Part shown: piece after piece, positions 4,846 through 11,160 of the stretch
Position numbering within the stretch: the first letter of the stretch is position 1
How the letters are laid out: the number at the start of each line of letters is the position of its first letter
Virus record (IMG/VR): IMGVR_UViG_2657245081_000004
Strand: one strand, 5' to 3'
Source: a virus
Taxonomy: Duplodnaviria; Heunggongvirae; Uroviricota; Caudoviricetes
Length of the DNA stretch: 12,885 nt
Notes under the pieces: model-generated
Seen by the model: the letters and a program-made list of their open reading frames with translations, nothing else
The model's database searches: none
Told to the model about the DNA's origin: nothing
Program-made: the position numbers and the translations under genes

Positions 4846-4903
4846 AAAAAGGGCGGCAGAGCAGTCACGGAGTAAAACTGATACCGCCAAACGTCACCAG
4901 AAA
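4846..4903 (-). ncRNA. dicF: DicF small RNA (ftsZ-targeting) with its intrinsic terminator
   Basis: Minus-strand sequence UUUCUGGUGACGUUUGGCGGUAUCAGUUUUACUCCGUGACUGCUCUGCCGCCCUUUUU matches remembered DicF; ends in a GGCGG/CCGCC stem plus U5. Confidence 0.85.
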
Positions 4904-5243
4904 ATTGATAACAGAGGGCGTTGCAGCGGGGTTGTCACTTAAGCGTATGGTCAACCTGACAACCCGGTGTCCTCAACGGGGAAGAAATAACCCCGCCATA
5001 CTTACCGCCGCACCATTTCGCGGGTTGCCACAACCGGAAGCGCACGGTCGACGAAAATTTAACGACAGGCTATCTATGAACCAGCTACCTCGCCGTGCGC
5101 TTTCGCGTTATGGTCTGACTTTTCAGGGAAATATCCTTTCAGTAAACTGTCAGTGCCGGATGCTCACCCGTGTCCGGCGCACGCACTCCACCTCACCCGT
5201 GGAGAACTCCTTAATTACCAACCTTAGCTTCGTTGGTTAGCTA

Positions 5244-5462
5244 TTAACGCGGGTATGTAATCATTCTGGCAATGCTTAATGCCGCTGCTTTTTCCAGATT
5301 GGTGATATCCTGCTCCAGAGCGGACAGATTTTCAGCCTGCTTAGCCCTGGCTTCATTGGCCCATTTCAGATCCTGCGCTGCATTAATTTTCTGGCGCATC
5401 CACTCATAAAGTTCATCATCGGTATAGTCTGGCGCGATGATGACGGGTTCTCGTTTCTGCAT
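5244..5462 (-). CDS. ydfC: YdfC-like protein (72 aa)
   Basis: 72-aa ORF in the expected position between ydfB and dicF; GAGG 9 nt upstream of the start. Name by synteny and length. Confidence 0.7.
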   Translation of the reverse strand: MQKREPVIIAPDYTDDELYEWMRQKINAAQDLKWANEARAKQAENLSALEQDITNLEKAAALSIARMITYPR

Positions 5463-9747: not shown

Positions 9748-9916
9748 TTTTGGTTCAACTAAATACAACGTCAGTTTTGAAGAATGGCATGAACTGTTAA
9801 TGGACTATGCAGAGTTACGTGGTGGCAGTGCTGCTGATGCTGAAGCATGGCGTGATGATTATGAAGCAGGAAAAACTCCGGTCGAAGCATATTGTGATGA
9901 GTGGGGCGATGAATGA
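9740..9916 (+). CDS. Small acidic protein (58 aa), translationally coupled to the preceding acidic ORF
   Basis: Hand translation MADFGSTKYNVSFEEWHELLMDYAELRGGSAADAEAWRDDYEAGKTPVEAYCDEWGDE; GAGGAAG 8 nt upstream; start overlaps the upstream stop by 8 nt. Not in the ORF track (below cutoff). Confidence 0.5.
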   Translation: MADFGSTKYNVSFEEWHELLMDYAELRGGSAADAEAWRDDYEAGKTPVEAYCDEWGDE

Positions 9917-9974
9917 GCGAGGTTAATTATCAGGAAGGGCATGAAACGGCGGGGCAAGCAAAAACAGTGGCATG

Positions 9975-10229
9975 GCGATATCGCTACGTGAAAAAAAAGG
10001 CGTTACGGACTTTCAGGGGAAGTAGTGGTCTGGTGACTGGAAATATGTACCGAAAAAAGAGGATTGTAACGACAGGCCGAACTATGAAATTCAGGCCTTA
10101 TTCACTGCCCCGCCAGTCCCGGTTACATCAGAAGAACTGGTTAAAGCTGTGCACTTTTATGAACAACTAAAACGCGAAAATCCACCAGCATCCGGAAACC
10201 TGATTACAGATTCCCAGATAAGGCAATGA
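9975..10229 (+). pseudogene. Interrupted ORF: 17 codons from ATG 9975, in-frame TAG at 10023-10025, then 67 sense codons with no start codon
   Basis: The frame reads MAISLREKKGVTDFQGK, TAG, then WSGDWKYVPKKEDCNDRPNYEIQALFTAPPVPVTSEELVKAVHFYEQLKRENPPASGNLITDSQIRQ. The track ORF 9913..10170 is in another frame and is basic and low-complexity. Confidence 0.35.
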
Positions 10230-10399
10230 GCTACCTGGCGCAGAACGGGCTGATAAGTATGGGGAATGTTTTACGATGAATATTTAGACTAAAGAGTTTG
10301 TAACGCTATGTAAGTGATTTTTTCTGGTTTAGATATTTATATGTCCGGCCAAATTGAGGTGTGTTTAAATGTAATTGCACATTGATTGTAGGAGGAATA

Positions 10400-10579
10400 A
10401 TGAAAAACGCATTGCAGTTTTTGTTTGTTGCGTTCTGGTTGTTCGTATCATGTATGCCCATCATCTTCACAGCAAGGTATATGGAAAAAGTTGATGTTTT
10501 GATATTAATATTTGGATATATAAATGCCCTTTTTTTAGGGGTGTTCATGGCGGTCATGTGCATTGAATACTGGCGGTAA
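10400..10579 (+). CDS. Small hydrophobic protein (59 aa) with two predicted transmembrane helices, in an AT-rich island
   Basis: MKNALQFLFVAFWLFVSCMPIIFTARYMEKVDVLILIFGYINALFLGVFMAVMCIEYWR; GGAGG 4 nt upstream of ATG 10400; surrounding DNA (about 10260-10620) is visibly AT-rich. Confidence 0.55.
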   Translation: MKNALQFLFVAFWLFVSCMPIIFTARYMEKVDVLILIFGYINALFLGVFMAVMCIEYWR

Positions 10580-10634
10580 ATACAGCGAACGCCATTGGTT
10601 TAGTTGGATATTTACTGTGCCGGACAAAAACGGT

Positions 10635-10662
10635 TTGCGGGGAAATCTTAGTTAAGTAGAAT
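10635..10662 (+). promoter_or_regulatory. Candidate hok mRNA promoter (TTGCGG-N16-TAGAAT)
   Basis: Hexamers seen in sequence about 170 nt upstream of hok, the distance expected for the long structured hok leader. Confidence 0.3.
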
Positions 10663-10734
10663 GACTGCGGGTGCTTGAGGCTATCTGTCTCAGGCATGAA
10701 CACCAAAAGGCAGATAGAGAAAAGCCCCAGTTAA

Positions 10735-10800
10735 CATTACGCGTCCTGCAAGACGCTTAACATTAATCTGAGGCCATATCTATGCGACACATAGAGATTA
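10735..10800 (-). ncRNA. Putative Sok-like antisense RNA region (approximate bounds)
   Basis: Minus-strand promoter-like TTGACC (complement of 10821-10826), 16-nt spacer, GCTAAT, reading across the mok-like start; position matches hok/sok architecture. Ends not determinable. Confidence 0.35.
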
Positions 10801-10841
10801 GCCTCTTACGGACCGAAAGGTCAAGGAGAAGCAGGCTATGA
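10782..10841 (+). CDS. Short leader ORF (19 aa) ending in ATGA overlap with the hok start; mok-like coupling frame
   Basis: ATG 10782 with GAGG 8 nt upstream; stop TGA overlaps the hok ATG. Confidence 0.35.
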   Translation: MRHIEISLLRTERSRRSRL

Positions 10842-10993
10842 AGCAGCAAAAGGCGATGTTAATCGCCCTGATCGTCATCTGTTTAACCGTCATAGTGACG
10901 GCACTGGTAACGAGGAAAGACCTCTGCGAGGTACGAATCCGAACCGGCCAGACGGAGGTCGCTGTCTTCACAGCTTACGAACCTGAGGAGTAA
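10838..10993 (+). CDS. hokD: Hok-family type I toxin (51 aa), HokD/RelF-like
   Basis: Hand translation MKQQKAMLIALIVICLTVIVTALVTRKDLCEVRIRTGQTEVAVFTAYEPEE matches remembered HokD; not in the ORF track (below cutoff). Confidence 0.85.
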   Translation: MKQQKAMLIALIVICLTVIVTALVTRKDLCEVRIRTGQTEVAVFTAYEPEE

Positions 10994-11062
10994 GAGACCT
11001 GGCGGGGGAGAAATCCCTCGCCACCTCTGATGTGTCAGGCATCCTCAACGCACCCGCACGTA

Positions 11063-11088
11063 ACCCGCTTCGGCGGGTTTTGTTTTTT
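11063..11088 (+). terminator. Rho-independent terminator downstream of hok
   Basis: ACCCGC-TTCG-GCGGGT hairpin followed by TTTTGTTTTTT. A 9-bp GAAA-tetraloop hairpin lies upstream at 11002-11023. Confidence 0.7.
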
Positions 11089-11160
11089 CCTGGCATTCTG
11101 GTTTACAATTCGCACGCCAGCCTGAACAACTGGCACCTGCTGCGCCAGCAGAGACAACCG

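Follow-up and report, generated by a model that had tools for sequence, protein, structure and literature searches.

A small unannotated gene, probably for a two-helix membrane protein, lies upstream of hok/sok in an AT-rich cassette of Escherichia coli prophages

The DNA analyzed here is a stretch of 12,885 nt from a Caudoviricetes virus (IMG/VR record IMGVR_UViG_2657245081_000004; hereafter "the window"), which carries a short open reading frame (ORF), designated ORF59, directly upstream of a hok/sok toxin–antitoxin module. ORF59 extends on the plus strand from an ATG at position 10400 to a TAA at 10579 and encodes 59 amino acids (MKNALQFLFVAFWLFVSCMPIIFTARYMEKVDVLILIFGYINALFLGVFMAVMCIEYWR). 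The Shine–Dalgarno (SD) sequence AGGAGG (10390–10395, plus strand) is placed 4 nt before the start codon, at the end of a non-coding leader (10279–10399, plus strand) that begins at the stop of the upstream gene. A first-pass annotation of the window had described an AT-rich island at 10260–10620 containing a well-initiated gene for a tiny two-helix membrane protein; the ATG start, the AGGAGG motif, and the two hydrophobic helices all bear out this description. When the 373-nt island was shuffled 5000 times with its dinucleotide counts preserved, an ATG-initiated ORF of at least 59 amino acids arose in 15% of the cases, together with an SD core in 0.48%, together with two transmembrane (TM)-like windows in 0.44%, and together with both in 0.04%. 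Such a combination of features is unlikely to be accidental, even given that the whole sequence offers about 35 windows of this kind. Judged by these signals and by the conservation described below, ORF59 is very probably a real protein-coding gene.

An AT-rich cassette of approximately 370 bp (10250–10622, without strand assignment; GC content 0.357) carries ORF59 as its payload. The cassette lies in the nin region of a lambdoid prophage of the Qin/DicF type and is gained or lost as one unit among related lambdoid prophages. In windows of 200 nt, the GC content is 0.365 (10201–10400), 0.345 (10301–10500), and 0.380 (10401–10600), compared to 0.465 upstream (10001–10200) and 0.465–0.575 downstream (10701–11100). 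The value of 0.345 is the minimum of the window, in which other troughs of 0.36–0.39 are also present. Mosaic breakpoints in E. coli genomes place the left edge of the cassette at 10205–10288 and the right edge at 10594–10650, with a minimal shared core at approximately 10288–10593; they were located at query positions 206, 233, and 251 and 623, 627, and 650 of the segment 10000–11100 of the window, and additionally in the haplotypes h25 and h38. The limits proposed for the island agree with these breakpoints, and the drop in composition is confirmed. Since the upstream gene ends at around 10280, the island consists of the intergenic leader and ORF59. Using the same segment as query, the hok/sok module, which starts between 10622 and 10666, was found without the island in O157 prophages, in BL21, and on plasmids. 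In BL21 the slot directly upstream of hok is empty; ORF59 therefore occupies a variable accessory slot next to hok/sok, as had been assumed. In a prophage of E. coli O157:H7 ATCC 35150 the same slot (locus L237, 2363–2467) contains an ORF of 34 amino acids (MSDDISLAMEGALAVIAVVGVYCLVVFLMDRLGN) with one TM segment and a strong SD sequence (AAGGAGGG), which is annotated as hypothetical protein (WP_001278450.1) and has no match in PHROGs. This ORF resembles ORF59 in slot, orientation, strong SD, and hydrophobicity, but is unrelated in sequence, contains one TM segment instead of two, has about half the length and, unlike ORF59, is annotated by the Prokaryotic Genome Annotation Pipeline (PGAP). Small membrane ORFs may hence be recurring cargo of the slot upstream of hok.

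Homologs of ORF59 form two lineages. At the DNA level, the island is present with at least 95% identity in 1,585 of 5,426 complete E. coli genomes (~29%; lineage A), and no more diverged copy was detected in a DNA search of E. coli genomes, plasmids, and phage records. A phmmer search against 1.84 billion representative proteins recovered, beyond near-identical copies, a protein likewise of 59 amino acids (P0037; lineage B) with an E-value of 3.7e-9. In BLASTP alignments the two lineages share 24 of 59 identical (41%) and 42 of 59 positive residues (71%) without a single gap (E = 4e-19), and they begin and end with the same residues. Lineage B is found at a single chromosomal location in 1,045 of the 5,426 E. 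coli genomes (~19%), where it is unannotated. In CFT073 (locus L208, 7152–7491) it forms part of what is left of a degraded prophage at the ttcA (Rac) site, where the order is partial integrase, DUF1627 fragment, ORF, permease pseudogene, and uspF. A remnant of hok begins 60 nt past the ORF stop; it comprises the 3′ 60% of the gene with approximately 72% identity to the hok of the window, has lost its 5′ part, and contains an internal stop codon. In both lineages the ORF adjoins hok on the upstream side and in the same orientation, and because lineage B also lies next to a hok remnant the linkage must be older than the split of the lineages. The ORF of lineage B has outlived its hok, the former being intact and the latter dead. 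In another lineage-B locus (L207; ORF region 5001–5320) the cdtABC toxin genes are situated approximately 1.5–3.5 kb upstream.

The divergence between the lineages carries a clear mark of coding sequence. The ORF DNA is 60% identical without insertions or deletions, whereas the flanks are 48–50% identical with 23 gap columns, and the differences are distributed over codon positions 1, 2, and 3 as 25, 16, and 31. The proportion of synonymous differences (pS) is 0.706 versus 0.333 for non-synonymous differences (pN; Fisher p = 8e-5), corresponding to a ratio of the respective substitution rates (dN/dS) of about 0.2 with saturated dS, and each of the five other reading frames is interrupted by stops in at least one lineage. 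We simulated neutral evolution in 20,000 runs, each with 72 substitutions that followed the spectrum observed. An uninterrupted ORF was left in 4% of the runs; the open products had a BLOSUM62 sum of 66 ± 18 as compared to the observed 155, which none of the 20,000 runs reached, and two TM segments were retained in 3.9% of the open products. This comparison indicates that purifying selection acted on the protein while the lineages diverged. An interpretation as spurious ORF, based on a 1:9 ratio of synonymous to non-synonymous polymorphisms and the missing PGAP call, was dropped once the HMMER search had found lineage B.

With a grand average of hydropathy (GRAVY) of 1.31, the predicted protein is very hydrophobic. 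Kyte–Doolittle profiles over 19 residues peak at 2.26 (residues 7–25) and 2.39 (residues 33–52), and AlphaFold2 predicts helices at residues 2–25 and 31–58 with a mean predicted local distance difference test score of 72. The protein can thus be divided into a hydrophobic segment (5–24), a loop (25–32), a TM helix (33–55), and the C-terminal tail EYWR. Both methods agree with the two membrane helices proposed earlier, and a membrane hairpin is the probable topology. By the positive-inside rule, the N-terminus and the EYWR tail would be cytoplasmic and the loop periplasmic, the charges behind this assignment being K2 in lineage A, R2-K3 in lineage B, and R59. The poorly conserved loop has no net charge in lineage A and is acidic in lineage B. 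Residues invariant between the lineages are M1, L5, L8, W13, S17, C18, P20, I21, I22, and T24 in the first part of the protein and L36, F38, G39, N42, A43, L44, E56, W58, and R59 in the second; G47 is shared by the main alleles of lineages A and B but replaced in one rare variant of lineage B. These invariant residues are mostly polar or special, while hydrophobic positions interchange, a pattern that marks a membrane protein under selection. Helix 2 has a conserved face, G39-x-x-N42-A43-x-x-x-G47, which corresponds to a small-xxx-small zipper with an asparagine. Small-xxx-small faces and membrane-embedded asparagines promote helix association. W13, S17, C18, P20, and T24 together with F38, L44, and the helix-2 face would accordingly mediate self-association or the binding of a partner in the membrane.

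A signal that the first-pass annotation had missed is found at residues 14–18 (L-F-V-S-C18 in lineage A), which satisfy the rule for lipoprotein signal peptides; Cys18 is thus a candidate site of lipid modification. The PROSITE PS51257-type rule (K/R in the n-region, h-region, Cys at position 15–35) matches at Cys18 in both lineages, each of which has K or R among its first residues, and the strict lipobox [LVI][ASTVI][GAS]C matches V-I-S-C of lineage B, whereas F-V/A-S-C of lineage A deviates from it. Moreover, S17 and C18 are invariant, and position −2 varies among allowed residues only (V, A, or I). In such a small lipoprotein, residues 1–17 would be a signal cleaved by LspA, and a mature protein of 42 residues would be anchored at Cys18 in addition to the TM helix 33–55. 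It could then act at the periplasmic face, for example in a Cor/Llp-style block of phage entry, and would represent a structural variant of the explanation we prefer. However, the Phe at position −3 in lineage A is rare in E. coli lipoboxes, the hydrophobic stretch continues past Cys18 (MPIIF or VPIIL) like an ordinary TM helix, AlphaFold2 predicts one unbroken helix from residue 2 to 25, and no hidden Markov model (HMM) of a lipoprotein family in Pfam or NCBIfam matches. A mature lipoprotein with an extra TM helix would also be unusual, and we consider this form of the protein unlikely.

Profile searches, which could have revealed a clear match to a holin or immunity family, gave none, and ORF59 has no match to a characterized family in Pfam, NCBIfam, PHROGs, PADLOC, the Protein Data Bank (PDB), or BFVD. 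The best PHROGs matches (E = 0.93 and 0.12) are to families without assigned function; neither sequence profiles nor Foldseek identified a match in the PDB, and Foldseek against BFVD returned generic helical hairpins only (E > 1). Nothing usable was found when a 72-residue version of ORF59 extended to a GTG codon and an ORF on the opposite strand were scanned against Pfam, PHROGs, NCBIfam, and PADLOC. Among the 185,579 species representatives of GTDB, ORF59 occurs only in Shigella and E. coli, and when 5.8 billion proteins were searched by word index, both the single sequence and a profile built from the two lineages retrieved just lineages A and B. According to these searches, ORF59 represents an orphan family of two lineages that is restricted to E. 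coli/Shigella; its carriers include the pathogens O104:H4 and CFT073. Some GenBank submitters label it as "hypothetical" or "putative membrane protein". A literature search with the ORF59 peptide string found no papers, and a preprint surveying Hok contains no discussion of the genes beside hok.

Some known systems nevertheless resemble ORF59 in part. Class II holins and pinholins such as S21 of phage 21 are also small phage membrane proteins with two TM helices, but ORF59 is located outside the lysis cassette, upstream of hok-rem-DUF968-rusA-Q, and a separate class II holin and a lysozyme are annotated approximately 3 kb past Q in the same prophage type. A function as holin was rejected on account of this position, the single Met start (the next Met being residue 19) in place of a dual-start motif, the short EYWR tail of four residues in place of a charged C-terminal tail, and the lack of a holin HMM match in Pfam and PHROGs. 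With exclusion proteins (T4 Imm and the lipoproteins Cor and Llp) and lambdoid morons (HK97 gp15, lambda bor and lom) ORF59 has in common that it encodes a small envelope protein in an AT-rich cassette which, among otherwise related prophages, some have and others lack at one fixed slot; the possible lipobox is a further similarity to the exclusion lipoproteins. It differs from these proteins by the absence of homologs in PHROGs and PADLOC. Distinct composition and presence or absence at a fixed slot, two hallmarks of phage morons, are both found in the ORF59 cassette, whereas promoter and terminator scans did not detect the own promoter and own terminator that are typical of morons.

Several observations weigh against ORF59 as a genuine gene with an accessory membrane function. 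PGAP/RefSeq leaves the ORF unannotated in nearly all of the ~1,585 lineage-A and 1,045 lineage-B genomes. Only two lineages are known, both within E. coli/Shigella, and the selection signal consequently rests on one deep comparison. Within the lineages this signal is not repeated: the 13 ORF haplotypes of lineage A contain one synonymous and nine non-synonymous changes, spread evenly over the codon positions, and 31 contigs of lineage B contain none and four, respectively. The pooled ratio of 1:13 fits neutrality (P = 0.20) and not ordinary purifying selection, and differs from the pN/pS of 0.20–0.46 in neighboring genes (Fisher p = 0.009 for lineage A and 0.0013 for both lineages). A T7 tract within the ORF (10530–10536, plus strand) is a hot spot of minority frameshift alleles, with T8 leading to a product of 55 and T6 to one of 45 amino acids, and a divergent copy (L086) has accumulated three frameshifts and lost its SD sequence next to an intact hok. 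Furthermore, no promoter of ORF59 rises above background in consensus and position weight matrix (PWM) scans: the best sigma-70 candidate (TTGAGG at 10354, 18-nt spacer, CACATT at 10378) has a score of 7.4, and 17% of random 146-nt windows score at least as high. Terminator scans identified no intrinsic terminator between ORF59 and hok. Finally, the small-xxx-small/Asn motif of helix 2 fits a pore-forming toxin equally well.

Much of this would be expected if ORF59 were a non-functional reading frame, either an AT-rich spacer or a decaying remnant carried along by hok/sok and the nin region: the missing PGAP call, the excess of non-synonymous changes within the lineages, the frameshift alleles and the degraded copy, and the lack of a standout promoter or terminator. 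Neutral drift, however, is incompatible with a pN well below pS, an alignment free of indels between the lineages, and a protein similarity that none of the neutral simulations attained, and comparable ORFs are rare in shuffled islands. The ORF is also the best-conserved part of the cassette between the lineages, and it contains 5.6 variants per 100 nt as compared to 9.4 and 8.1 in the non-coding flanks. It was intact in 104 of 105 loci retrieved via a non-coding anchor and, in lineage B, in all 31 metagenome contigs. The variants of lineage A are few and young, all copies being at least 95% identical, and most of the changes are conservative; two of them, I37M and Y40H, introduce the residue of lineage B. 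We therefore regard a non-functional ORF as improbable and read ORF59 as a real gene that is at present under weak constraint, or under a constraint that cannot be gauged from the available diversity.

ORF59 and the entire early-right (nin) operon share one orientation. As ORF59 lacks a standout promoter and terminator of its own, it would be co-transcribed with this operon, and the transcripts would run into hok/sok. Its stop codon is 55 nt away from the hok promoter and approximately 90 nt from the start of the hok mRNA. This proximity, the missing terminator in between, and the high conservation of leader positions 10288–10372 within lineage A could also point to a role at the DNA or RNA level, with the island serving as an extension of hok/sok control (promoter or insulator) or encoding a small RNA (sRNA) and the ORF being incidental. 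But hok/sok modules function as separate units in the sense that they occur without the island in plasmids, O157, and BL21, and lineage B has kept its ORF although the regulatory region of hok is deleted. Rfam searches of the island (10250–10622) yielded no RNA family at gathering or permissive thresholds. The leader is homologous in lineage B, but gapped and only ~50% identical. For the leaders of both lineages RNAalifold gave a weak consensus fold (−8.2 kcal/mol over 178 columns) without stable pairing of the SD sequence, and the palindrome TTTAG-A-CTAAA (10284–10294), a 5-bp hairpin with one compensated pair in lineage B, is too little for a claim of structure. Such a role consequently seems very improbable. 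The SD sequence itself varies, AGGGGG being a common allele and CAGGGA the form in lineage B.

On the opposite strand, an ORF of 85 amino acids (10306–10563, minus strand) is annotated in three phage records in place of the sense ORF, once as "hornerin" and otherwise as hypothetical protein; these entries are probably mis-annotations. We rejected this ORF as a gene because it has no SD sequence, its frame is interrupted by two stops in lineage B, and stop-gain alleles occur in lineage A. Promoter-like sites on the minus strand are present in both lineages at different positions. The one on the antisense strand of the lineage-B ORF (L207, approximately 5097–5125, minus strand; TTGGCA, 17-nt spacer, CATTAT, extended TG) has a score of 10.2, which ranks in the top 2% of windows, and its position is not conserved in lineage A.

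Such an antisense site would be in line with the possibility that ORF59 encodes a second small membrane toxin of a type I-like or GhoT-like kind, which would oligomerize via G39, N42, A43, and G47, depolarize the inner membrane, and form a double-toxin locus with hok. ORF59 indeed has the generic type I toxin trait of a small hydrophobic membrane peptide, its helix 2 combines a conserved Asn with the small-xxx-small face, and the physical linkage to hok is old and found in both lineages. Like Hok/Gef proteins (PF01848), it would be a small hydrophobic inner-membrane protein of a prophage, and it adjoins hok in both lineages; it has, however, no PF01848 match (Pfam, E ≤ 1) and two hydrophobic segments rather than one. 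GhoT and OrtT (PF10753) are membrane-damaging E. coli toxins of 57 amino acids with two TM segments, which are nearly the same size as ORF59 and, like it, predicted hairpins. In contrast to these, ORF59 lacks an HMM match at E ≤ 1 and an adjacent GhoS-type antitoxin gene, and is found in another context. No other toxin family of Pfam or PADLOC matched either. Neither an antisense RNA nor mok-like coupling or a fold-back leader was detected for ORF59. The AGGAGG motif is unmasked, no structure is conserved in the 5′ untranslated region (UTR), the antisense promoter-like site differs in position between the lineages, and the island contains no Rfam RNA. Lineage B, moreover, is maintained intact in ~19% of the genomes within a dead prophage remnant without a neighboring partner. 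A second toxin at this locus hence appears unlikely.

Because the translation signals of ORF59 are unguarded, no partner gene or RNA is found, and the lineage-B copy has survived by itself in a defunct prophage, we favor an accessory role over an autonomous toxin. The first-pass annotation had also proposed superinfection exclusion, abortive infection, or a second toxin; while its two-helix membrane gene, lack of a recognized family, and accessory slot are upheld, these specific functions received no support, as neither a defense or toxin HMM match nor an antisense or antitoxin partner or an SD-masking structure was identified. Among the functions considered, a non-lethal accessory modulator of the membrane or an exclusion-type role is our tentative choice. 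The protein would either form a hairpin of two helices or, should S17-C18 be processed by Lgt and LspA, span the membrane once with a lipid anchor, and might act on a partner in the membrane or on phage entry. Taken as a whole, the statement that ORF59 is a genuine unannotated inner-membrane gene beside hok whose product serves as accessory, non-toxic modulator or exclusion factor is somewhat better than evenly balanced.

The hok/sok module that follows ORF59 starts with a putative hok promoter (10635–10662, plus strand), consisting of TTGCGG at 10635, a 16-nt spacer, and TAGAAT at 10657 (PWM score 8.7), which marks it as a separate unit. The leader of the hok mRNA, which contains the region antisense to sok (10669–10840, plus strand), matches RF01794 with 106.7 bits. 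It includes a mok-like upstream ORF of 19 codons (10782–10841, plus strand), which overlaps with the hok start in an ATGA motif; in haplotypes with a 1-nt deletion at 10821, Mok and Hok are joined in frame into a read-through ORF of 70 amino acids. The HokD-type hok gene (10838–10993, plus strand; 51 amino acids) matches PF01848 (E = 1.2e-23, 82.9 bits) and phrog_251, and is called "hokD" by PGAP. Its intrinsic terminator (from 11062 to 11079–11088, plus strand) is the first one downstream of ORF59. A match to IsrK, an sRNA of Salmonella prophages, at 11002–11083 (plus strand) overlaps with the hok 3′ UTR and this terminator and is below threshold (27.1 bits versus a gathering cutoff of 50; E = 0.0013). 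Past hok, a Rem-like ORF, DUF968/YdfU, RusA, and Q are encoded. In the non-coding-anchor sample, 31 of 105 loci have no intact hok beside ORF59. In the commonest island haplotype of IMG/VR, an insertion sequence element is located exactly at the hok start codon (~10838), followed by flxA-ydfV-relBE-hokD as in the Qin prophage of K-12 (L003, 4640–6000).

The gene upstream of the cassette (9913–10278) is a frameshifted pseudogene in the window (PGAP: "frameshifted; internal stop"), but intact in other loci such as L115, where it encodes 171 amino acids and ends at ~10280; its pN/pS within the sample is 0.94, and 83 of 141 copies contain gaps. The DicF sRNA is encoded at 4851–4902 (minus strand; RF00039, 76.7 bits) close to dicB and ydfD-type genes, and on the basis of DicF and the annotated neighbors we assign the prophage to the Qin/dicB-type lambdoid group. 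Runs of ten N (masked or unknown bases) occur at positions 60–69 and 179–188 of the window.

With ORF59, the small membrane proteins of prophages, a broad class, gain one more undescribed representative, which is a modest novelty. A more far-reaching idea is that ORF59 and hok constitute an old two-gene membrane module, with the possibly lipid-anchored ORF59 product as modulator, immunity factor, or co-toxin of Hok, or that it represents a new class of prophage exclusion factor that was domesticated by itself in B2 strains after the decay of hok; either would be a long shot on the present data. Nevertheless, the reference annotation omits this gene in both lineages and no family database describes it, although small prophage membrane proteins are a class that has repeatedly been found to control phage entry, lysis timing, transporters, and membrane integrity. 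Should ORF59 turn out to have no phenotype, it would provide a case of a young orphan gene that combines a deep signal of selection with neutral-looking current variation. Its lasting place beside hok and its survival past the decay of hok lead to a testable hypothesis on the cargo that type I toxins may carry along in prophages.

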